IMG/VR virus record: IMGVR_UViG_2563366848_000004
Source of the DNA: a virus
Lineage: Duplodnaviria > Heunggongvirae > Uroviricota > Caudoviricetes
Strand: one strand, 5' to 3'
DNA length: 42,367 bases
In this document: piece after piece, positions 2,835-14,424 of the stretch
Layout: every line of letters begins with the position of its first letter
How positions within the stretch are numbered: position 1 is the first letter of the stretch
Notes under the pieces: model-generated
The model's input: the letters and a program-made list of their open reading frames with translations, nothing else
Told to the model about the DNA's origin: nothing
The model's database searches: none
Translations under genes and position numbers: made by a program

Positions 2835-5744
2835 TTATGCATGAGTACGCAGCGCTTCAAGGCGGCGCAGGTCGAAGTCGTTCAGTTCGTCGGTGTAGTC
2901 AGCAGTGATTGGCGCTGGCCATTCACCTGTGTCGAATCCGGTTGCGATATTGCGCATCGCTTTGCGGTACTCGAGCATACCCAGCTCCAGTAGTTCAGCG
3001 GATGCCTCGATGATGGCGATCCAGTGGTAGTTCTCGTCTTTGTTGACGAAAATCCAGAAGAACTGATCCAGCGCTGCGGTTTCGCAGTACATAGCCGCGC
3101 TCAGGTGATAATCACGTTCAATAATTTCCCGGTGTAGCCTGGCGCGCAGGCTTTCCTGCTTAACATTCCACATGCTGATGGTTTTCAGGTCAGCACCGAT
3201 ACGCACGCCGTCTAGGTCGATCTCAAGGTCAGGACGCACACGAACTTCCAGTCCCGTCTCCTCGTCAAAGCCAAAGTAGCTCACCTCAACGGCGCGGCTC
3301 GGGTGGGTTAGCAGCATGCCTGCGGTCGGGTGCGAGAGCAGTGCTGACTGAATTGCCTGCGCGGTGGCAAGTTGCTGGTGGGTAACCAGCACTTTCCCTT
3401 CCGGGTTGTTGCGCCAAGCATCGAGCAGCTCGTCGGCGAACACTGCATCTGGTTTGACTGCCTTCACGGCCTGAATCAGATCGGCCTTCGTGCCAGAGAC
3501 TTTCAGCGGTTGCAGCTTCTGAGCTTCCTGCGCGACCAGGTCAGGATTGATAATCGCAAGTTGTTCGAGTAGTGCGTCGCGGCTGCCGCTGGTTTTAATC
3601 TGCGCTGGCAGGGTGGCGTTGTACTCTTTGATGCACGCCTTCATTGCTGTTGCTGTCTTCTTCTGATCTGTATCGATACGTTGGAATTCAGCTGGCAGCG
3701 CCATATAGTTCTGCGCCGTTTCATCCAGGCTAGCGCCCAGCGGCACCAGCGCTGGCAGGGTGGCGTTGTATTCATCCAGCAAAGCTTTGATATCGTCTGC
3801 GCTCAGTTGCGCTGGCAGGCTGGCGTTGTACTCATCAATAAACGCGCGGATCGTTGCCGTGGTGGTAAATGCACCTTCCGGAATTACGGGTTCAACGCTA
3901 AATTCTTCATCGAGCTGTTCTGGCTGCAACGCCAGCGCATGTACCAGGTTTCCCATGTCCAGCACTGAGGAGCGCTCTTTGACGATGGTTTTCTCAACGT
4001 GGCGCGCATTGAAGTACATCAGCGAAACGCGCGCATCTTTTACCTGGGTGGAACTGATGCCGTTGGCAGCGTGGTAAACCTCGTTCGGCAGACCTTCATA
4101 GCGCCCAGGCTCGAAGTAATCGGGGTAAAAAACAGCTTGTTCGTCAGATTGCGCCTCTGGCTCGACGTGTGCCAAAACTGGTTCAGTCTGGTTTACAGAA
4201 TCGCTATTTTGAGCGACAGATTCCGTATTTTGGTTTACATCGGCCTGCTGGCCGGGATGTGACTCTTCACCAGTTTCCAGACTGCTTTCGCCTGACTGCA
4301 TTTCATTACCAACATTTTTTTCATCACTGACAGTTTCTTGAACCTGCACATTGCTGGTGGTTTCCGTAGCCTGTTTCGTGCCATGAGTTGCTGAGTTCTG
4401 CAGTAAAGCCGTAACATCGAATATTCCGTTGCCGACATTTTTAACCAGTTCTTGTTCGGCTTTATGTGGTTGTGCTGTCGCTTCCTCTGCGCGGCGGCGT
4501 GCTTCTTCTTCACGTACGCGTCGCAGGTTCTCTTCGTGAGTGCAGAAGGGTTTGCGTGGAGACTCCTTACTTTCAGGTTGGGGAATTTCCTGTGTTGCGG
4601 GCTCAGCTTCATGCAATGGCAATAACTCAACAGCAGCATTAAACGCAGCAGTCATGGTCCGGTTAACAAACTCCAGGTGAGCGACAGGAGTTAGATGAAT
4701 ATTTTCCGGCGCGATACGTATCAGGTTAAAAATAGCTGTGCGGTTAACGCCAAGAACGCCGGGTTGATTGCGCAGAATGCTGCTCCATGATTTCCACGGT
4801 TCTTCTTTTTTGGTCACGATTTCTTTAGCGCGACGAAGAATGCTGCCCGGGATCTCGAAGTGGTTGAAGTCCATAGGCAGAAGGGCACATGCAATCTCTA
4901 AATCGAGAGTGTCAAGGGTATGGTATGTATCAGGTCCACGGTCAGTGACGTAACCGCCGTTGGCATTGGTTCCGGAATCAGTACGCTGAACACTACTGAT
5001 GTGATTACCGGCAGCCCATTCACGCGCCAGGATGCCACGGTCAATGTAATCAGTAGCCGCCCACATTCTGGTGAAACGGAGTACCAGCGCGAGTTCGTGA
5101 CGCTTGTCCTGGCTGAACACTTTGCGAATGGCATCGGTGTAGCGCCACAGGTCTTTGGTGTCGTAACCCTTCACTTCCGGGCAGTTCTCAGCAGCTAACA
5201 GCAAGTTCTGGACGTAACTGTTATCAGTGTCCATCTCCAGCGCGCCGATAGCTTCGTACTCTTCGCGGGTTACGTGGTGGCGCAGTTCGTCGGCGGTGAA
5301 CTGGGAAAGCAGTTGCTTACGAAACGGCATCTGCACTACCGGGTAGAGGGTTGAGTCGTCGTCGTGTTCGTCCAGCGTGATGCCAGCGGTTTCTGGCAGC
5401 GTTGACTCAGTAGTTATGTGACTATCAACGGTCTGAGCTGTTTTCTCGTCAGAGTTTTCAGCTGTGACTTTTGGCAGCCAGGTGCGGTCATCGTTCTGCA
5501 GTTCGTAGCGTTCGCACCAGGTGTAATCCACTGCGCCTTCTTCCGGCAGGTCGTCATATACCGGGAAATCGGTGCGGATTGGTTTGGCATAATCTTTACC
5601 GCGGCCAGTTTCTTCAATTCCGGCTTCTTCCAGTGCCACATCGAGTTGGAGATTGGCGCGCGCTACACTTTTCGCAGTGAACCAAATCACTGCATCTTTC
5701 TTGCCAGACTTCTGACTGGCTTTTATCAGATGGAAAAATTCCAT
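2835..5744 (-). CDS. RecE-like exonuclease VIII (C-terminal PD-(D/E)xK nuclease domain)
   Basis: 969-aa ORF from internal ATG (MEFFHLIKAS) with AAGAGGA SD; C-terminal region carries RPDLEIDLDG...IGADLKT (PD...DxK nuclease motif); large acidic/low-complexity linker; positioned upstream of annealase as in Rac recE-recT. Confidence 0.65.
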   Translation of the reverse strand: MEFFHLIKASQKSGKKDAVIWFTAKSVARANLQLDVALEEAGIEETGRGKDYAKPIRTDFPVYDDLPEEGAVDYTWCERYELQNDDRTWLPKVTAENSDEKTAQTVDSHITTESTLPETAGITLDEHDDDSTLYPVVQMPFRKQLLSQFTADELRHHVTREEYEAIGALEMDTDNSYVQNLLLAAENCPEVKGYDTKDLWRYTDAIRKVFSQDKRHELALVLRFTRMWAATDYIDRGILAREWAAGNHISSVQRTDSGTNANGGYVTDRGPDTYHTLDTLDLEIACALLPMDFNHFEIPGSILRRAKEIVTKKEEPWKSWSSILRNQPGVLGVNRTAIFNLIRIAPENIHLTPVAHLEFVNRTMTAAFNAAVELLPLHEAEPATQEIPQPESKESPRKPFCTHEENLRRVREEEARRRAEEATAQPHKAEQELVKNVGNGIFDVTALLQNSATHGTKQATETTSNVQVQETVSDEKNVGNEMQSGESSLETGEESHPGQQADVNQNTESVAQNSDSVNQTEPVLAHVEPEAQSDEQAVFYPDYFEPGRYEGLPNEVYHAANGISSTQVKDARVSLMYFNARHVEKTIVKERSSVLDMGNLVHALALQPEQLDEEFSVEPVIPEGAFTTTATIRAFIDEYNASLPAQLSADDIKALLDEYNATLPALVPLGASLDETAQNYMALPAEFQRIDTDQKKTATAMKACIKEYNATLPAQIKTSGSRDALLEQLAIINPDLVAQEAQKLQPLKVSGTKADLIQAVKAVKPDAVFADELLDAWRNNPEGKVLVTHQQLATAQAIQSALLSHPTAGMLLTHPSRAVEVSYFGFDEETGLEVRVRPDLEIDLDGVRIGADLKTISMWNVKQESLRARLHREIIERDYHLSAAMYCETAALDQFFWIFVNKDENYHWIAIIEASAELLELGMLEYRKAMRNIATGFDTGEWPAPITADYTDELNDFDLRRLEALRTHA

Positions 5745-5882
5745 GTGAGATCCTCTTTTTTGAGTGTTAGAATCCCCGGGCCAGAGATAGCGCCCATTGG
5801 ATGTTTTTTGGTTTGGTATAAATTCCGGTGTAACTTTGGTCGGTGGCACCGGACGTGAATCCCGCCTTGCGCGGGTTTTACG

Positions 5883-6509: not shown

Positions 6510-6585
6510 TTGCATATTAAGCCTGAGACTTAAATCATGTCAAGCTCCAGGCGAAATGTGATTGTAAGTTTCAGGCTTAATCGTG
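6510..6585 (-). promoter_or_regulatory. leftward early promoter with operator sites (OL/pL-like)
   Basis: On minus strand TTGACA (6543..6538) - 17 nt - TTAATA (6520..6515); 17-bp site TTAAGCCTGAGACTTAA (6517..6533) overlaps spacer/-10 and is the inverted copy of the OR site; additional half-site TCAGGCTTAA at 6571..6580. Confidence 0.5.
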
Positions 6586-6838: not shown

Positions 6839-8143
6839 TTATTGACGATTAAAGTAGTTAGAGTTTAGCTCTTTAGGGAAGTAGTGTTTACGATTTACCC
6901 AAACAAATCCATCAACTTTTGATATCACAGCGACATCAACAGGCCCACCGACAGTTTCATAATCATGTGATACTTTTCTTTTGAATGCAGTGATGTTCAC
7001 TAATGATTCGGCCATATACGCAAGATCTGCCTTCCCAAGTGATTGCAACATCGATATCATTTTATTTGTATGGTTATTAACAATATAGCTTTCAAGTTTA
7101 GTATCGTGATCTTGTAAAAGTACGTTTTTGAGTTCCTCAATTTCACTGGAGAAGTGATTGGCTAGTACTCCATTGTTCATTGCAGGGAAAATATTGCTAG
7201 AAACATAATGATTAAGCCGATCAAAAACTTCCTCTGTAAGAGTTCTGTTAAAATTAATGATGTTAGGGTTGCACCCATCAATGAAAGTTACTACTTCATC
7301 TTCTTGAGCAAATGGTATAACAAACCCCATATTGGTTACCTTATTATGGGATTTATCATCAATATTATGGATCATCAATTTGTTTTTAAAAATGCCGTAG
7401 ATATGAAGAGTGCAAATGGAAGGGTAATATTCTTCCTCTCCATAACCTGTTATAACAATCCCTGAATATGTACGACTAGCATGGACTTTGAAAATTAAAC
7501 AAGTGGAATATAATATGACTTTTTCCATAAGCTCTTGCTGTATATTTTCACAGTTATCAAGAACAATAATTGATGAAATGTATGGCGATATTAAATCTTG
7601 TATATATGCTAAAGCATCATTAAACTCTTCTGTATCAAACCCTTCGAAAAAGAGATTATTCCTTAAGATTCCTATCTCTAAATCAAAGGCTTGCTTAACT
7701 ATGTTTTGAAAAATAACATTGTCGAGTTCAACGGCGGGGTTCATTGTTAAATAGTTTACTACATTATTATCATTAATGTATCTCATCAAACCTTTGAGGT
7801 TATCAACAACAAGGTTTATAACGCAAGCCTCTCTCATTTCATTTGTTATAAGGTCTGAGTTACCATTGATGAATTTTACAAAGTCATTAACATATTCTTT
7901 AATGGTAGGGAAACTAGTTTTCCCCAATTGTTTTCTATAGGATTTAATTATAAGTTCCCACGGTGCGCCACCCAGTGTCGCATTATTATAAATCATGATC
8001 CCCACGGGATGGTGTTTAGATAGTTCGAATAGTTTTTCCGCACTATTATTTATTTTTACTAATCTATTATGCTCTGTGGTGACTGCAGAGTCAGCAGCAA
8101 GGGCGATTCCAGTATTATTTATTACAACAATCTCAGCTGTCAT
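6839..8143 (-). CDS. AT-rich 435-aa protein with proteasome-beta/HslV-like Ntn-hydrolase signature; candidate lysogen-expressed defence protein
   Basis: Long ORF in a markedly AT-rich island; start at ATG 8143 (MTAEIVV..., GGGA upstream) preferred over track start 8242, which has no SD; N-terminus T2-x15-D18 ... K30-I and C-terminus DYETVGGPVDVAVISKVDGFVWV resemble Ntn threonine-protease motifs (from memory); same strand as and downstream of the repressor. Confidence 0.75.
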   Translation of the reverse strand: MTAEIVVINNTGIALAADSAVTTEHNRLVKINNSAEKLFELSKHHPVGIMIYNNATLGGAPWELIIKSYRKQLGKTSFPTIKEYVNDFVKFINGNSDLITNEMREACVINLVVDNLKGLMRYINDNNVVNYLTMNPAVELDNVIFQNIVKQAFDLEIGILRNNLFFEGFDTEEFNDALAYIQDLISPYISSIIVLDNCENIQQELMEKVILYSTCLIFKVHASRTYSGIVITGYGEEEYYPSICTLHIYGIFKNKLMIHNIDDKSHNKVTNMGFVIPFAQEDEVVTFIDGCNPNIINFNRTLTEEVFDRLNHYVSSNIFPAMNNGVLANHFSSEIEELKNVLLQDHDTKLESYIVNNHTNKMISMLQSLGKADLAYMAESLVNITAFKRKVSHDYETVGGPVDVAVISKVDGFVWVNRKHYFPKELNSNYFNRQ

Positions 8144-8704: not shown

Positions 8705-8760
8705 AAATTCGCCTCAGGCTTGACAATAAATTAAGTCTCAGGCTTAATTTGATTGTATTC
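8705..8760 (+). promoter_or_regulatory. rightward early promoter with operator sites (OR/pR-like)
   Basis: TTGACA (8720..8725) - about 17 nt - CTTAAT; 17-bp site TTAAGTCTCAGGCTTAA (8731..8747, arms TTAAG/CTTAA) overlapping the -10; second CTCAGGCTT half-site at 8713..8721 overlapping the -35. Confidence 0.55.
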
Positions 8761-9005: not shown

Positions 9006-9545
9006 ATGCAATCACTTACGTATCAACAGAGTAACGGGTTCATTTCAGCAGCGCTGATAAATCGCGCTCAACCAAAACCGGGCGTCAGTTGTGGTGCCCT
9101 CCGTGATGCTGTTCGCGCCTGGTCAGCAGTAGCCGGGCAGGACGTTGTAACGGCCCTGATCGTTGAAGAGTGGCACCGGATAGGTGGCGAAGGTATCGAC
9201 TTTCCGGCAGATCACAGCCGTGCCCGGCAGAAGCTGTTCCGCTTCCTGGATAACCATTTCAACAGCGAACGGTACCGCGAGAACGTCCGCCAGCTGACGC
9301 CGGCAATCCTCGCTGTCCTGCCGATTGAATACCGCAATCGTCTGCTACCAGAAGACAACGTAATGGCTCGTCTGGCAAGGCTGGAGAAGGAAACCAGCGA
9401 AGCGAAGATTGCTGTCGCAATGGATGCGCCACGTCATCAGAAGCTGAAAGAGTTGAGCGAGGGGATCGTGGAGATGTATCGCGTTGACCCTGGGTTAACC
9501 GGTCCGTTGATGGAAATGGTGCAGATTATGCTGGGGGCTATATGA
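9006..9545 (+). CDS. hypothetical early regulatory protein (YdaT/CII position)
   Basis: 179-aa ORF directly after the Cro-like gene; assignment by position only. Confidence 0.5.
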   Translation: MQSLTYQQSNGFISAALINRAQPKPGVSCGALRDAVRAWSAVAGQDVVTALIVEEWHRIGGEGIDFPADHSRARQKLFRFLDNHFNSERYRENVRQLTPAILAVLPIEYRNRLLPEDNVMARLARLEKETSEAKIAVAMDAPRHQKLKELSEGIVEMYRVDPGLTGPLMEMVQIMLGAI

Positions 9546-9629
9546 CCGGTTCAAAAATGGCGAAAGCCGCGGTGCTCGAACACCAACGGCTTTCAGGTGC
9601 AAAAACAGTGCGTAATTGCGGAGAACAGT

Positions 9630-10538
9630 ATGTCAAACACCGCTGAAATAATCAATTTCCCAAATAAAACCGAACAACCGGGAGGTCGTATGGCCGACCT
9701 GTCGAACGGGTATACCAAGGTCGCTAACGAGATCCAACAGCTTAAGCCTCGCCTGAGACTGTCAGGCCGGGAATGGCAATGTTTTGAGGCGGTGATCTGG
9801 CTTACCTACGGCTGGAACAAGAAACAGGACCGTGTGACAAATACGGTTATTGCCGAGCTTACGGGCCTGAGCGATACGCATGTATCGGACGCGCTTAAGT
9901 CTCTCGCAGAACGCAAAATCATCTTTTCACAGAAGCAGGGCATGATGAAAATCGTCGGTGTAAACACTGACCTTTCAGCATGGATTTTAGACAAACCGGA
10001 AACGGGAAGAAAATTCCCGAAAACGGGAAAATCCTTCCCGAAATCAGGAATAACCTTCCCGAAAACGGTAGACACCCAATACAAGAACAAGAACAGTATT
10101 AAAAGATCTTCGTCCGAGAATTCTGACGAATCCTCTGACGCACGTCTGAAGAAATTTTTATCAACTCATCCTGAAGCTGCGGTCTACACACCATCCGGTG
10201 CGAAGTGGGGCTCTGCTGAAGACCTCGAGACAGCTAAGTGGATTTCCTCCAGGGTGAAGCTGATTAACCCAACCTGCAAAGCCCCGGACATGACCTCCTG
10301 GTCTAACACTGTTCGCCTGATGCGCCAGATAGACAACCGGTCGCACCAGGACATCTGCGCGCTGTATGACTGGGCTAGCAAACACCACTTCTGGCAGACC
10401 AACATCCTGAGTCCCGAAAGCCTGCGTAAGCAGTGGGACAAGCTGACAATGCAGCGTAACGCCGGAGGTGAGCAGCGCGCTGTCAAGCCAGATCTGGACT
10501 TCAACAACACTGACTGGGCCTATGGGGTGATCCGATGA
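9630..10538 (+). CDS. replication initiator protein O-like
   Basis: Start at ATG with GGAGAA SD (track ORF begins earlier at GTG 9597); iteron repeats embedded in the coding sequence; 4-nt ATGA overlap with P gene as in lambda O-P. Confidence 0.8.
   Translation: MSNTAEIINFPNKTEQPGGRMADLSNGYTKVANEIQQLKPRLRLSGREWQCFEAVIWLTYGWNKKQDRVTNTVIAELTGLSDTHVSDALKSLAERKIIFSQKQGMMKIVGVNTDLSAWILDKPETGRKFPKTGKSFPKSGITFPKTVDTQYKNKNSIKRSSSENSDESSDARLKKFLSTHPEAAVYTPSGAKWGSAEDLETAKWISSRVKLINPTCKAPDMTSWSNTVRLMRQIDNRSHQDICALYDWASKHHFWQTNILSPESLRKQWDKLTMQRNAGGEQRAVKPDLDFNNTDWAYGVIR
10005..10070. repeat. origin iterons (about four direct repeats of TCCCGAAAACGGGAA-like units) inside the O gene
   Basis: ccggaaacgggaag / ttcccgaaaacgggaaa / ttcccgaaatcaggaa / ttcccgaaaacgg with an AT-rich stretch downstream; encoded as KFPKTGKSFPKSGITFPKT. 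Confidence 0.6.
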
Positions 10539-11224
10539 AATCTCTTGCAGAGCAGATGCGTAACCACGACCGCGAGCAGATGAGCCGCATGGCCCATAAC
10601 CTGCCAGAGCAGTACCAGGAGTGCGCGCCGGTCGAGCAGGTGGCGCAGGTATTCAACAAGCTGTTCAACGAGCTGCGCGCCGCGTTCCCGGCCAGCATGG
10701 CGAACTTCCGCACCCAGGAAGACCTGAACGAATTCCGCCGTCAGTGGCTGCTGGCGTTTCAGGAGAACGGGATCCACACCATGGCTCAGGTCGATGCCGG
10801 CATGCGCATTGCCCGCCGCCAGGAGCGCCCATTCCTGCCGTCGCCGGGCCAGTTCGTCGCCTGGTGCAAGCAGAGCGGCGGCGCGCTGGGCGTCAACGTT
10901 GACCAGGTGATCGCCGAATACTGGGACTGGCGTAACCGCTCGTTCGAATTCATCTCCAGCGAGCAATTTCCATGGTCGCAGCCGGTCATGTACCACATTT
11001 GCGTAGAATTGCGCCACCGCAGCACCGAGCGCCAGTTAACGCATGGTGAACTGGCACGCGAGGCAGGCGATCTGCTGGACATGTGGGAAAGGCGCGTCAC
11101 CGAGGGTAAGCCAGTGCCGCCGGTACGCCGGGCTATTGCCGCACCAGCTGCCGAGCAAGGGCCGACGCCGATCCAGCTGCTGCTGGCCAAGTACAACCGC
11201 AACAAGTCGAACGGGATGGTGTGA
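10535..11224 (+). CDS. P: replication protein P (DnaB helicase loader), lambda P-like
   Basis: 229-aa product MKSLAEQMRNHDREQMSRMAHNLPEQY...RRQERPFLPSPGQFVAWC closely parallels lambda P as remembered (MKNIAAQMVNFDREQMRRIANNMPEQY...RRQNRPFLPSPGQFVAWC). Confidence 0.9.
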   Translation: MKSLAEQMRNHDREQMSRMAHNLPEQYQECAPVEQVAQVFNKLFNELRAAFPASMANFRTQEDLNEFRRQWLLAFQENGIHTMAQVDAGMRIARRQERPFLPSPGQFVAWCKQSGGALGVNVDQVIAEYWDWRNRSFEFISSEQFPWSQPVMYHICVELRHRSTERQLTHGELAREAGDLLDMWERRVTEGKPVPPVRRAIAAPAAEQGPTPIQLLLAKYNRNKSNGMV

Positions 11225-11225
11225 C

Positions 11226-11426
11226 ATGAACATAACAATCCGTGAGCAGGTGCTGGCAGCCCTGCGCAACAACCCAGGGTTGAACAACGCCAAACTGGCA
11301 GGGCTTCCCGGAGTGGTACATCATCGATCAGGACTATCGGGGGCAGAAGTACGCGAAGGACAAGCAGGTTGCGCGTTGTGGCAACGCAGTTCCGCCGCCA
11401 TTCGCCGAGGCACTGGTGAGGGCTAA
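11226..11426 (+). CDS. hypothetical protein, probably a rearranged gene remnant
   Basis: ATG overlapping P stop (ren position); the +1 frame over its 3' half encodes ...CGNAVPPPFAEALVRANLPELCQQKEIAA with no start codon, ending at 11466. Confidence 0.3.
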   Translation: MNITIREQVLAALRNNPGLNNAKLAGLPGVVHHRSGLSGAEVREGQAGCALWQRSSAAIRRGTGEG

Positions 11427-11565
11427 TTTACCGGAGCTTTGTCAGCAGAAAGAGATCGCAGCTTAATGTCCGAGTTTCAGAACATGGTGTAACAAATCCT
11501 GCTACTTCAATGACGTAGATTCAAACCTGATATAATTAGGCTCTTCACAACACGAGGAGCCTAAA

Positions 11566-11802
11566 ATGCACCATTACATGATCCCTATCAACGGAACTGT
11601 TCACCTGATCAAGACTGACTCTCTAATCCCTGAAGGGACTGAGTATAGCTTTGAAGGAGAAAGTCTAATCTGCGCTCATGCCACTTTTAAATCTGGGACG
11701 TATGGCTTCCTGATACCAAAGGGAAATCAGTTGAATAGAGAGCATGCGTTCTGGCATGTAAGTGGAATTCACCCTAATCCCCTGGGAATGGATAAATCGT
11801 AA
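11566..11802 (+). CDS. hypothetical protein (78 aa) in AT-rich insert
   Basis: ORF with GAGGAG SD; lies between two roughly 83 percent identical 64-nt segments. Confidence 0.45.
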   Translation: MHHYMIPINGTVHLIKTDSLIPEGTEYSFEGESLICAHATFKSGTYGFLIPKGNQLNREHAFWHVSGIHPNPLGMDKS

Positions 11803-11913
11803 TCCATAATATGCATGCCATCGTCCTGAACATACGGTGGCATGCATCCGGCACTACAACAGAAACGTTAAAGTGCAAACAATACAATTCGAGCAATATT
11901 CAACCTGTCACAG

Positions 11914-12054
11914 ATGGCGAATACCACCGCCATTTCGTGCATTCTGTGGTTTCTATTACCCATTGCGTTAATGCTGTCCAATCATCAGCTCGCTGAGGCG
12001 CTGGTTAGGGCTAACCTACAGGAGCTTTGTCAGCAGAAACAAATAGCGGCGTAA
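11914..12054 (+). CDS. possible small hydrophobic protein (46 aa) sharing its C-terminal 20 aa with the upstream remnant
   Basis: Hand-translated MANTTAISCILWFLLPIALMLSNHQLAEALVRANLQELCQQKQIAA; no clear SD; overlaps a 61-aa track ORF in another frame. Confidence 0.25.
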   Translation: MANTTAISCILWFLLPIALMLSNHQLAEALVRANLQELCQQKQIAA

Positions 12055-12071
12055 TAAAACATCGCTAATTC

Positions 12072-12100
12072 AACCCGCTACGGCGGGTTTTCTTTTTTTA
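12072..12100 (+). terminator. rho-independent terminator
   Basis: CCCGC-tacg-GCGGG followed by TTTTCTTTTTTT. Confidence 0.45.
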
Positions 12101-12161
12101 CTACTGACAGAAAATTAACAATTTGTGCTCTTAAAGCGTTGATCATTTCCGCGCATAGGTA

Positions 12162-12181
12162 TACTGTATAAAAACACAGTA
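12162..12181 (+). promoter_or_regulatory. LexA (SOS) box overlapping the dinI-like promoter
   Basis: TACTGTATAAAAACACAGTA = CTGT-N8-ACAG with TA flanks, overlapping a TATACT -10-like hexamer, about 20 nt upstream of the DinI-family gene. Confidence 0.7.
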
Positions 12182-12199
12182 AATGCAATGGGGGCCATT

Positions 12200-12433
12200 A
12201 TGAAAGTTGAATTAACCATTGATCGCATGAAAGAACTTCCTAAAGGCGCAGTACCAGCACTGGAGAAAGAACTGCTTAAGCGCCTGAATGATCACTATGA
12301 CAATTGCAGGCTCACAATCCGCCGTGCCGGGGCCGATGGGTTAAGTGTTTTTGGTGGTGACAAGGACGATAAAAAGAAAATTGAATCAATCCTCCAGGAT
12401 ACCTGGGAAAGCGCTGACGACTGGTTTTATTAG
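12200..12433 (+). CDS. dinI: DinI-family DNA-damage-inducible protein
   Basis: MKVELTIDRMKELPKGAVPALEKEL...LSVFGGDKDDKKKIESILQDTWESADDWFY parallels E. coli DinI as remembered (MRIEVTIAKT...SVIGATKEDKQRISEILQETWESADDWF); LexA box upstream. Confidence 0.8.
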   Translation: MKVELTIDRMKELPKGAVPALEKELLKRLNDHYDNCRLTIRRAGADGLSVFGGDKDDKKKIESILQDTWESADDWFY

Positions 12434-12550
12434 AATTGCGCTTAAGGCTGGCGCGCATTTTTCAGAATACCGCAATTTGCGTAACCCTCTGATGCTGCTG
12501 CCGACAATCTTTAATCGCGTCTGTTAGTCGCTCGAAGGGAGAACATAAAT

Positions 12551-12799
12551 GTGAGTGATTCAGCTTTGCAAACGTCAGAAGACAACTGGTATGACATTGT
12601 AAGAAGGTCTGACGGCTGCGTGGTGTTTAGCTTTCCTTCATCGGGCAGGCATCTAATTTATCGCGTCAATGGCATGGTTTCTATGCGGCCTTTGCTGGAT
12701 GATGAAGAGGTCTTTACTCCTAATGGTTTTATGCAGTTTATTCACCGTCTCGGCTACCGGGTAACCCCACCTTCTGATAATATGAAATCAACGGTCTGA
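12551..12799 (+). CDS. hypothetical protein (82 aa)
   Basis: GTG start with AGGGAGA SD; no family recognised. Confidence 0.45.
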   Translation: MSDSALQTSEDNWYDIVRRSDGCVVFSFPSSGRHLIYRVNGMVSMRPLLDDEEVFTPNGFMQFIHRLGYRVTPPSDNMKSTV

Positions 12800-12833
12800 A
12801 CAACCGTAACCTACTGCGCCACGGAGAGAAACC

Positions 12834-13433
12834 ATGGCGCACGAACTACAACTCATCAAGCATTCCTCAGGAATCCTGATCCCCGCTACGCCGGAGACCA
12901 GTGATTTACTGCAATCAAAAATCAAACTCGGCTCCGTACTGGTGGCTGAGTTCCGGCAGGTACGCAACCCGGCCTTTCACCGTCGTTTCTTCGCGTTACT
13001 CAATCTCGGTTTCGAATACTGGGAACCCACCGGCGGGGCAATCTCCTCCAACGAACGCAAGCTGGTAACCGGCTATGCCAAGTTCCTTGCCTCATTCGCG
13101 GGAAGTGAAGCAGCACTCCTGGATGCTGCTGAGCAATATCTGGACCGCATCGCCGATAAGCGTACTGGTAGCATCTGCGCCTGTAAGTCATTCGATGCAT
13201 ATCGTGCATGGGTCACTATTGAGTCCGGCCATTACGACGCCATTCAGCTGCCTGACGGCACCCTCCGCAAACATCCCCGCAGTATCTCATTCGCAAATAT
13301 GGATGAAACTGAGTTCCAGCAGCTGTACAAAGCCGCGCTCGATGTTCTGTGGCGATGGATACTCTCCCGATCATTTCGCAGTTGTGAAGAGGCAGAAAAC
13401 GCCGCCGCCCAGCTGATGAGCTTTGCGGGGTGA
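12834..13433 (+). CDS. hypothetical nin-region protein (199 aa)
   Basis: ORF with GGAGAGA SD; position equivalent to the lambda nin region; no confident family call. Confidence 0.6.
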   Translation: MAHELQLIKHSSGILIPATPETSDLLQSKIKLGSVLVAEFRQVRNPAFHRRFFALLNLGFEYWEPTGGAISSNERKLVTGYAKFLASFAGSEAALLDAAEQYLDRIADKRTGSICACKSFDAYRAWVTIESGHYDAIQLPDGTLRKHPRSISFANMDETEFQQLYKAALDVLWRWILSRSFRSCEEAENAAAQLMSFAG

Positions 13434-13639
13434 TGGCGATGAAATTTTCCTGGTTCCACCATCACGAATGCACCACCGAACAGGCCGACGAGCTGGTGGA
13501 GAAATACCGGGCGCGCGGTGTAAAGACAGAGCGCAGCCTGAATCGCGACAACATCACCTGGACCGTCAGCGCGCAATTGCCGGAAGGCGATAACGCGCCT
13601 CGCCCGAGCCGGGTATGGCAAAGCAAGGCGTGGGGGTGA
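13433..13639 (+). CDS. small hypothetical nin-region protein
   Basis: Short ORF overlapping the stop of the upstream gene; start ambiguous (13430 GTG, 13433 or 13439 ATG). Confidence 0.4.
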   Translation: MAMKFSWFHHHECTTEQADELVEKYRARGVKTERSLNRDNITWTVSAQLPEGDNAPRPSRVWQSKAWG

Positions 13640-13641
13640 GC

Positions 13642-13932
13642 ATGGCAAATTTACGCAAAGAGGCTCGTGGTCGTGATTGTCAGGTTCGAATTCCCGGCGT
13701 CTGCAACGGTAACCCGGAAACGTCTGTACTGGCGCACATTCGCCTGGCCGGGTTATGTGGCACCGGAATCAAACCGCCTGATCTGATTGCCACCATTGCA
13801 TGCTCTGCCTGTCACGACGAGATCGACCGCCGTACACATTTTGTCGATGCTGAGTATGCTAAAGAATGCGCGCTGGAAGGTATGGCGAGAACGCAGGTTA
13901 TCTGGCTGAAAGAGGGGGTAATCAAGGCGTGA
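13642..13932 (+). CDS. YbcO-like protein (DUF1364-type, Cys/His-rich putative nuclease)
   Basis: Start at internal ATG ([28 protein letters not shown]...[10 protein letters not shown]) with GGGGGTGAG SD; immediately upstream of rusA as in DLP12. Confidence 0.7.
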
Positions 13933-14291
13933 ATACTTACAACATCACATTGCCCTGGCCGCCGAGCAATAACCGCTACTACCGCCATAATCGCGGGCGC
14001 ACGCACATCAGCGCAGAAGGGCAGGCATACCGCGATAACGTCGCCCGAATCATTAAAAACGCAATGCTGGATATCGGTCTGGCTATGCCTGTGAAAATCC
14101 GCATTGAGTGCCACATGCCGGATCGCCGTCGCCGTGACCTGGATAATCTGCAAAAGGCCGCTTTTGACGCACTCACCAAAGCAGGTTTCTGGCTGGACGA
14201 TGCTCAGGTCGTTGATTATCGCGTTGTGAAGATGCCCGTTACCAAAGGTGGAAAGCTGGAACTGACAATCACCGGGCTGGAGGCCGTATGA
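13929..14291 (+). CDS. rusA: Holliday junction resolvase RusA
   Basis: GTG start overlapping upstream stop; [108 protein letters not shown] matches E. coli RusA as remembered. Confidence 0.85.
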
Positions 14292-14424
14292 CATTTGAAT
14301 CCTGTTTTTCCGATCACCTCCGCGTTCGCTGGCAGCGGCTTCGCTTATACCACTTTCCCGGCTCTGTGCTAACGGACTACCGGATACTGAAGAATTACGT
14401 GAAAACTTATGCTGGAGAAGCACT

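Follow-up and report, generated by a model that had tools for sequence, protein, structure and literature searches.

We analysed the region between the replication gene P and dinI in a 42,367-nucleotide (nt) stretch of DNA from a virus of the Caudoviricetes (IMG/VR record IMGVR_UViG_2563366848_000004; the whole stretch is referred to here as the window), which is an Escherichia coli lambda-like (lambdoid) prophage of the phi80/mEp237 type. With a probability of about 0.85, this region is a stack of recombination scars from two different C5-cytosine DNA methyltransferase (methylase) genes. The initial annotation, made from the letters of the window, had regarded it as a rearrangement scar, and this was supported by comparison with Enterobacteria phage mEp237, E. 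coli CUWW10, E. coli H6, and Klebsiella phage 5 LV-2017. However, the gene ends that had been described as duplicated did not arise by duplication in place but were found to be two diverged alleles.

Two methylase gene ends between P and dinI

The segments 11402-11467 and 11990-12055 form a direct repeat in which 55 of 66 nt are the same (83%), with a longest exact block of 19 nt, as obtained with a repeat finder, MAFFT, and self-BLAST. When the whole 42-kb window was compared with itself, this pair was the top direct match (E value, 1.7e-12), and the runner-up matches had E values of approximately 2e-4. Chance similarity of the two copies was rejected because the repeat is far beyond chance at this E value; an assembly artefact was also considered as its source and rejected. 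A TAA codon closes both copies in the same register, and the translations preceding it are FAEALVRANLPELCQQKEIAA for copy 1 and LAEALVRANLQELCQQKQIAA for copy 2. The identity of approximately 83%, the shared stop register, and the nearly identical peptides that had been pointed out initially were all reproduced by the alignment programs.

Judging from protein similarity, both repeat copies are the 3' ends of C5-cytosine DNA methyltransferase genes. Copy 1 (11402-11467, plus strand) represents the 3' end of methylase allele 1, and the start-less frame that it closes (11299-11466, plus strand; QGFPEWYIIDQDYRGQKYAKDKQVARCGNAVPPPFAEALVRANLPELCQQKEIAA followed by the stop) comprises the last 55 codons of the gene, as indicated by tblastn and profile searches. 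This frame, designated remnant 1, has no start codon and lacks the catalytic motifs I-VIII. In tblastn, it was 91% identical to residues 661-715 of the intact 715-aa (amino acid) methylase of Klebsiella phage 5 LV-2017, with an E value of 4e-27. Profile searches assigned remnant 1 to phrog_23072 (E 1e-22) and to PF00145 with an E value of 0.0059, which is under the gathering score given the short length of 55 aa; the longer remnant of 134 aa in mEp237 matched PF00145 with an E value of 3.9e-7 (30.2 bits vs a cut-off of 22). Remnant 1 also carries CGNAVPPP, the C-terminal motif X, so that both motif and similarity place it among the C5-cytosine methyltransferases, and the loose resemblance of its GNAVPP to motif X that had been noticed at the outset was confirmed. 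It is not a complete enzyme: the frame opens at 11284 after a stop codon, only 55 codons are left, and motif I (FxGxG) and motif IV (PC) are gone, whereas the intact relatives are 662-715 residues long and carry DNFAGGGGAS close to the N-terminus.

Copy 2 (11990-12055, plus strand) contains the last 21 codons and the stop (11989-12054) of methylase allele 2, as indicated by the repeat and by tblastn, and only this 21-residue tail of what is termed remnant 2 is clearly methylase. Both remnants are non-functional gene fragments. In a related contig from the Logan assemblies (L010), the copy-1 remnant has an in-frame stop at 3734-3760 (QGLPE, the stop, and then YIIDQ), and the adjoining 78-aa gene, described below, is open; the remnant is therefore decaying independently there.

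The two copies differ at 11 codons, of which 8 are synonymous and 3 non-synonymous. The numbers of non-synonymous (dN) and synonymous (dS) substitutions per site calculated by the Nei-Gojobori method were 0.065 and 1.28, respectively, giving a dN/dS of 0.05. Because the divergence is dominated by synonymous changes and the surrounding DNA is 99-100% identical in relatives, these values indicate two diverged functional alleles and not an in-place duplication.

Each allele has a native context elsewhere. In the prophage of E. coli H6, the counterpart of copy 1 ends an intact 662-aa methylase gene, behind which come the intergenic sequence seen in the window, homologues of the 78-aa gene and of theta (HolE), and then ninB; the H6 DNA is 81% identical to positions 11298-11579 of the window. 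In Klebsiella phage 5 LV-2017, the counterpart of copy 2 ends the intact 715-aa methylase gene and precedes the terminator stem found in the window, a DinI homologue, and ninB. Since each tail is native behind an intact methylase elsewhere, the 78-aa gene belongs with copy 1 and was not inserted between copies that already existed. These comparisons suggest that two alternative modules, both beginning with the 3' end of a methylase gene, have been joined in the window, as they have in mEp237.

Accordingly, of the earlier proposal that foreign DNA had been inserted by recombination at a conserved gene end, such recombination is supported by the hybrid tails described below, but insertion into one gene is not consistent with the contexts in H6 and the Klebsiella phage. 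The GC content is 0.58-0.67 over 10500-11400, drops to 0.43-0.45 over 11400-12000, and stays at 0.40-0.50 onward through dinI to approximately 12800. The DNA between the copies is indeed low in GC, as had been noted, but it is not a distinct AT-rich island bounded on both sides, since the low GC continues on the right through dinI. Copy 2 is the left edge of the conserved module consisting of the terminator and dinI.

A 718-bp deletion and hybrid tails in relatives

Alignment of the window to the corresponding part of mEp237 (L001) showed that positions 9400-11306 match L001 1-1907 and that positions 11298-14399 match L001 2617-5718. The nonamer GCAGGGCTT is located at both breakpoints in mEp237 and occurs as a single copy at the junction in the window (11298-11306), indicating that the window carries a microhomology-mediated deletion of 718 base pairs (bp). 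In mEp237 and CUWW10, P is followed by a 114-aa Ren-like winged-helix gene (phrog_142, PF13412), a 65-aa gene, and a methylase remnant of 134 codons, which is already truncated N-terminally and has the RefSeq label "missing N-terminus". Compared with these two, the window is short by the rest of the ren-like gene, the 65-aa gene, and 79 codons of the methylase remnant. Their identity to the window was 99.8% to the left of 11306, approximately 96% from 11298 rightward, where the value is lowered by the ninB allele, and 99-100% from copy 2 through the 82-aa gene that follows dinI.

The deletion junction was found in 35 of 5426 complete E. coli genomes. The stretch 10900-12900 of the window was present at 99.8-100% identity in 32 of these, all with the 588-bp cassette that separates the two tails, and the other three had hybrid tails; one genome carried the undeleted form.

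As a result of the deletion, a chimeric ORF (open reading frame) of 66 aa was formed (11226-11426, plus strand), in which 27 Ren-like codons are joined to 39 out-of-frame methylase codons. It is annotated by the Prokaryotic Genome Annotation Pipeline (PGAP) as a coding sequence (WP_001299077.1, "hypothetical protein"). Its residues 1-27 (MNITIREQVLAALRNNPGLNNAKLAGL) are those of mEp237 gp44 (114 aa; phrog_142 with E 1.8e-28, PF13412), and the ren-like start of translation is preserved in it, directly adjoining the P stop codon. The complete winged helix-turn-helix domain of a Ren-like exclusion protein or winged-helix regulator (approximately 110 aa; phrog_142, PF13412) is not present, since only residues 1-27 of 114 are kept. 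The 66-aa chimera is most likely a non-functional by-product of the deletion, even though PGAP annotates it. The suspicion of a truncated or fused gene remnant, raised because the start-less frame ending at 11466 is out of frame with the ATG-initiated ORF at 11226, therefore proved correct, the fusion being the product of the 718-bp deletion.

The three genomes with hybrid tails are E. coli M172-1, AR_0119, and WEM25. They share the deletion junction, have a single hybrid methylase tail, and lack the 588-bp cassette. In M172-1, copy-1 variants give way to copy-2 variants between positions 6 and 11 of the repeat, and in AR_0119 and WEM25 the crossover lies within the 19-nt identical block; prophages lacking the cassette thus have two different crossover points. 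These hybrid tails indicate that the cassette-less forms are derived and not ancestral. Both flanks of M172-1 match the window at 99.9-100% identity, which is what a simple loss of 588 bp between the repeats would leave.

A copy-2-type tail precedes dinI in M172-1, AR_0119, KL53, ECCWS199, and SEN34, and, as part of the intact gene, in Klebsiella phage 5 LV-2017. Under unrelated upstream cargo, the methylase tail and the terminator are retained before dinI with 32 codons in KL53, approximately 33 (degenerate) in ECCWS199, and 19 in SEN34. L010 contains the whole composite (copy 1, promoter, 78-aa gene, and copy 2) at 82% identity, with a different module after the copy-2 stop. The tails of KL53 and L010 are patchworks of alleles. 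Hybrid junctions therefore lie inside the diverged patch in M172-1 and in AR_0119/WEM25, as in the patchwork tails of KL53 and L010, which is the pattern of a mosaic joint made by homeologous recombination. Recombination of DNA with a divergence of up to 22% is efficient with lambdoid phage recombinases, and moderately diverged "shoulders" accompany about half of the mosaic patches (PMC2327257).

The 78-aa gene and neighbouring features

The 78-aa ORF (11566-11802, plus strand) encodes a protein 100% identical to mEp237 gp47, on which PHROG 30079 is based (phrog_30079, E 6.9e-49). No Pfam domain was detected in this protein. Only a handful of relatives are found in very large protein collections. 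The homologues (75-78 aa, 39-96% identity) share 18 invariant positions (C36, H38, Y46-G47, P70-N-P-L73), even those with only 39-41% identity, and synonymous sites are saturated against the H6 homologue with a dN of 0.54. Because of these invariant positions and the saturation of synonymous sites at that dN, the ORF is considered to be a real, rare gene. An AlphaFold (AF2) model of the protein consists of a five-stranded beta sheet and a C-terminal helix (predicted local distance difference test score (pLDDT), 80.5), and no significant structural neighbour of the model was found. The gene is annotated in mEp237 and its homologue is annotated in H6, and PGAP is silent on it in the window-type genomes. 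In those E. coli genomes, RefSeq/PGAP leaves 11427-12199 (773 bp) without any feature despite the conserved 78-aa gene and the methylase fragments.

The intergenic region in front of the gene (11468-11565, plus strand) is conserved and contains a promoter-like site and a ribosome-binding site, as read from the sequence and from the mEp237 annotation. A -35-like ATGACG is located at 11510-11515, an extended -10 element (TGaTATAAT) at 11528-11536, and a Shine-Dalgarno (SD) sequence GAGGAG at 11555-11560. The mEp237 record annotates a promoter at L001 2829-2855, which corresponds to 11510-11536 of the window. The gene is probably transcribed from this putative extended -10 promoter of its own. 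The core at 11490-11536 (GTAACAAATCCTGCTACTTCAATGACGTAGATTCAAACCTGATATAAT) hardly varies among the window, H6, and L010, whereas the coding DNA on both sides of it shows only 55-82% identity. Such conservation seems to exceed the need of a bare promoter, and the core could include an operator or another regulatory site.

Directly after the gene, the repeat finder detected an inverted repeat (11811-11847, plus strand) with a 14-bp stem, 93% complementary, and a 9-nt loop. It is largely retained in L010. There is no T-run behind it, and the terminator scan did not call it an intrinsic terminator; it may be a transcript-end hairpin. Both elements of the earlier prediction for this ORF, a gene at 11566-11802 and its GAGGAG SD, were borne out. 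The profile searches that had been suggested for the start-less frame and for this ORF returned PF00145 and phrog_23072 for the former and phrog_30079, without a Pfam family, for the latter. Our best guess, from its position and promoter, is that the 78-aa protein is an accessory (moron) protein expressed in the lysogen. The gene is present in the window and absent from M172-1 between the nearly identical flanks described above, as would be expected of a moron.

A heavily decayed continuation of remnant 2 is probable at 11913-11987 (plus strand), where DGEYHRHFVHSVVSITHCVNAVQSS was compared in register with DQDYRGQKYAKDKQVARCGNAVPPP. In this comparison, 30 of 75 nt matched the methylase gene, against a null expectation of 19 +/- 3.9 (empirical p 0.0045), and 32 of 75 matched the intact H6 gene. 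Between this segment and copy 2, the window has an extra base at 11988 that causes a +1 frameshift, whereas in L010 the frame reads straight through (..THCANGIQSPLAEALV..). Remnant 2 was probably of about 46 or more codons originally and has since decayed, for which this similarity is suggestive but not proof. Upstream of 11913, methylase homology was sought by eye in the frame 11811-11996; the spacings of candidate motifs did not fit, and no claim is made.

The 46-aa hydrophobic ORF closed by copy 2 (11914-12054, plus strand) does exist in the ORF list, as stated initially, but support for it as a gene was not obtained. Its ATG falls within a 56-nt gap in L010, where the frame is also off by 1 nt, and it had no Pfam or PHROG match. 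The ORF is therefore not conserved.

An intrinsic terminator follows copy 2 at 12072-12099 (plus strand), where the terminator scan found a 7-bp stem with five GC pairs and then TTCTTTTTTT. The stem (AACCCGCTnCGGCGGGTT) is invariant in six loci, including the locus behind the intact methylase of Klebsiella phage 5 LV-2017, and the terminator is taken to be native to the methylase gene. It is followed by the dinI module (12162-12433, plus strand), which consists of a LexA-box-like site, TACTGTATAAAAACACAGTA, at 12162-12181 and a DinI-family gene at 12200-12433 (PF06183, E 3.8e-26; DinI family according to PGAP). The LexA box consensus is TACTG(TA)5CAGTA. The site, as read from the sequence, is near-perfect and overlaps a -10-like TATACT upstream of dinI (12139-12181). 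The prophage dinI thus appears to be under SOS control through a promoter of its own that lies beyond the methylase terminator.

The gene order around the scar is an O-like gene (9597-10538) and P (10535-11224), both of the phi80 type of replication genes, the scar region, dinI (12200-12433), the 82-aa gene, ninB/DUF1367 (12834-13433), and the remaining nin region. P (plus strand), of the phi80 gene-14 type, is annotated as P in mEp237 and in E. coli RefSeq genomes, is 99.8% identical to that of mEp237, and forms the conserved left flank of the variable region. ninB is 81% identical to that of mEp237 and 91% to that of CUWW10, and the DNA on either side is 99-100% identical, which represents a clean allele replacement restricted to one gene.

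Several other observations were made in the window and in one relative. At 3601-3845, a 38-nt unit (TGCGCTGGCAGGGTGGCGTTGTACTC...) occurs in three direct copies that are 76-84% identical with spacings of 147 and 60 nt; the copies sit within a 1004-aa minus-strand ORF (2835-5849), and they presumably encode a repeated protein motif. A 44-nt inverted repeat (6513-6555 and 8708-8751; 84% identity, E 7e-5) has arms approximately 2.2 kb apart that flank minus-strand ORFs of 467 and 128 aa, in the expected early or immunity region. The prophage of E. coli ECCWS199 (L006) carries an opposite-strand tRNA-Ile gene (3350-3441) in the cargo between a ren-like gene and the methylase tail, and a tRNA-Thr gene (7641-7715) after Q.

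Proposed history, alternatives, and known systems

The comparisons suggest the following history. One lineage would have carried methylase allele 1, the promoter, and the 78-aa gene, as in H6, and another would have carried allele 2, the terminator, and dinI, as in Klebsiella phage 5 LV-2017. An illegitimate join would then have placed the former block before the 3' part of allele 2, leaving about 46 allele-2 codons, of which the last 21 are well preserved; the last 66 nt of remnant 2 were probably renewed later through recombination with an intact allele. Allele 1 lost its N-terminal part of about 530 codons, and hence its function, a state represented by mEp237. The 718-bp deletion between the GCAGGGCTT copies, visible in the comparison with mEp237, subsequently removed most of the Ren-like gene, the 65-aa gene, and more of the methylase, producing the 66-aa chimeric ORF. 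Finally, as relatives illustrate, the 66-nt tails serve as substrates for homologous or homeologous recombination, and crossovers in them delete the 588-bp cassette or swap the downstream module.

Some observations weigh against this history or parts of it. Its order of events is deduced from few extant genomes, and a different order, or exchanges between phages, would lead to the same products. The right flank of AR_0119 is only 95-97% identical to the window, and AR_0119 is probably an inter-phage recombinant rather than the result of an intramolecular deletion. The extension of remnant 2 upstream of 11990 depends on the 30 matches in 75 nt (p approximately 0.005) and could be due to chance; if the extension is genuine, the abrupt rise in identity from 40% to 83% at 11990 would call for a further event, for example later conversion of the tail by an intact allele. 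As for the 78-aa gene, the dN/dS between its two closest alleles is only 0.59, on 13 changes, and a generic promoter scan that requires a spacer of 16-18 nt did not call the putative site at 11510-11536.

It is unlikely, in our estimation, that the methylase tail has been kept for a function of its own, either as a module-boundary "linker" for the exchange of cargo or, together with the terminator, as a cis-element or 3'-end-derived RNA before dinI. Such a function would account for the finding that at least five different left junctions keep at least the last 19 codons and the terminator before dinI, these being, besides KL53, ECCWS199, and SEN34, the window with 21 (perhaps 46) codons and M172-1 with 55. 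The patchwork of alleles in the tails of KL53, L010, M172-1, and AR_0119 is also consistent with it, and 11985-12100 of the window folds better than shuffled sequences (z = -3.3). However, RNAalifold on six loci found no covariation in the tail and terminator (covariation term, +0.39), with support for only the invariant terminator stem, and no Rfam family was assigned, the best match (E 0.33) being under the gathering score. A structured RNA in copy 2 and the terminator was rejected on these results, namely the absence of a credible Rfam match and of covariation beyond the terminator stem. In addition, the differences between the copies follow a protein-coding pattern (dN/dS 0.05), and retention of the tail could reflect repeated crossovers in a conserved tail as well as ascertainment, given that the loci were collected through their resemblance to this tail. 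We likewise consider it doubtful that the last 60 nt or so of the methylase and the terminator form, in this group of lambdoid phages, a selected homology handle or cis-element at the module boundary that outlasts the gene itself and allows repeated swapping of cargo upstream of dinI, with the 78-aa protein as such cargo having an undescribed host-directed function, for example in exclusion or anti-defence.

The geometry of the region, with direct repeats around a promoter-bearing cassette that only some of the near-identical prophages contain, resembles an in-place duplication, target-site-like or by unequal crossing-over, that accompanied insertion of a mobile cassette with the 78-aa gene and later diverged. 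This origin is extremely improbable. The 17% divergence is nearly all synonymous (dS 1.28, dN/dS 0.05) within surroundings that are 99-100% identical among relatives, in other phages each copy closes an intact methylase gene and runs on into its own downstream sequence, and the cassette-less forms have hybrid tails and are thus derived. Moreover, there is no transposase, integrase, or terminal inverted repeat within 11467-11990. A transposon- or integron-type insertion with target duplication was rejected on the same grounds, as neither a recombinase ORF nor terminal inverted repeats were found and the repeats are 17% diverged. It is also very unlikely that the ORFs made by the scars, the 66-aa chimera (11226-11426) and the 46-aa hydrophobic ORF (11914-12054), are functional new genes. 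Both are open and start with ATG, and the 66-aa ORF is annotated by PGAP with its ren-like start abutting the P stop. Nevertheless, the 66-aa ORF has 27 of the 114 winged-helix residues followed by out-of-frame sequence, and the 46-aa ORF lacks its ATG and its frame in L010 and matches no Pfam or PHROG family, as described above. Taken together, these findings favor a stack of scars from two different methylase genes.

The closest known system is phage mEp237 (NC_019704 / JQ182730, gp43-gp48). Like the window, it has P, a methylase remnant, an annotated promoter, the 78-aa gp47, a second methylase tail, the terminator, and dinI. Unlike the window, it has an intact Ren-like gene, the 65-aa gene, and the 134-codon methylase remnant, together making up the 718 bp that the window has lost, and a ninB that is 81% identical. 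The second methylase tail is unannotated in the mEp237 record. In the window-type genomes, RefSeq calls the 66-aa chimera a protein and misses the 78-aa gene and both methylase fragments.

The moron concept of Juhala and colleagues (2000) is said to describe accessory genes with their own promoter, and sometimes a terminator, between conserved lambdoid phage genes. The 78-aa gene resembles morons in its promoter-like site, the hairpin that follows it, its presence or absence (window vs M172-1), and a GC content under that of the replication genes. It differs from them in that the hairpin has no T-run and in that its GC content equals that of the neighbouring dinI module, so that composition does not mark it out. 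Phage orphan C5-cytosine methyltransferases (PF00145; PHROG 23072 and 116) are matched by remnant 1 over the C-terminal 55 residues at approximately 90% identity, including motif X (GNAVPPP), and the remnants sit just upstream of dinI or the ninB region like the methylases of Klebsiella phage 5 LV-2017 and H6. Unlike the intact orphan enzymes, they consist of 55 and 21 (perhaps 46) codons, with no start and without the S-adenosylmethionine (AdoMet)-binding and catalytic-cysteine motifs, and are pseudogene fragments.

The scar in the window provides a small, resolved case of lambdoid reshuffling, in which an illegitimate join, a microhomology deletion, and homologous crossovers in 66 nt at 83% identity are all found within 830 bp, and for both the deletion and the crossovers, natural genomes represent the states before and after. 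The case does not alter the present view of phage mosaicism. As in the mosaic joints of lambdoid phages (Martinsohn, Radman and Petit 2008, PMC2327257; De Paepe et al. 2014, PMC3945230), a short diverged patch, here of 66 nt at 83% identity, lies at a module border with hybrid junctions inside it, and non-homologous joints occur elsewhere. Unlike the published joints, the patch is a dead gene fragment, and its 66 nt fall short of the median "shoulder" of 200 bp (PMC2327257). The scar is therefore an instance of known lambdoid mosaicism and not a new kind of element.

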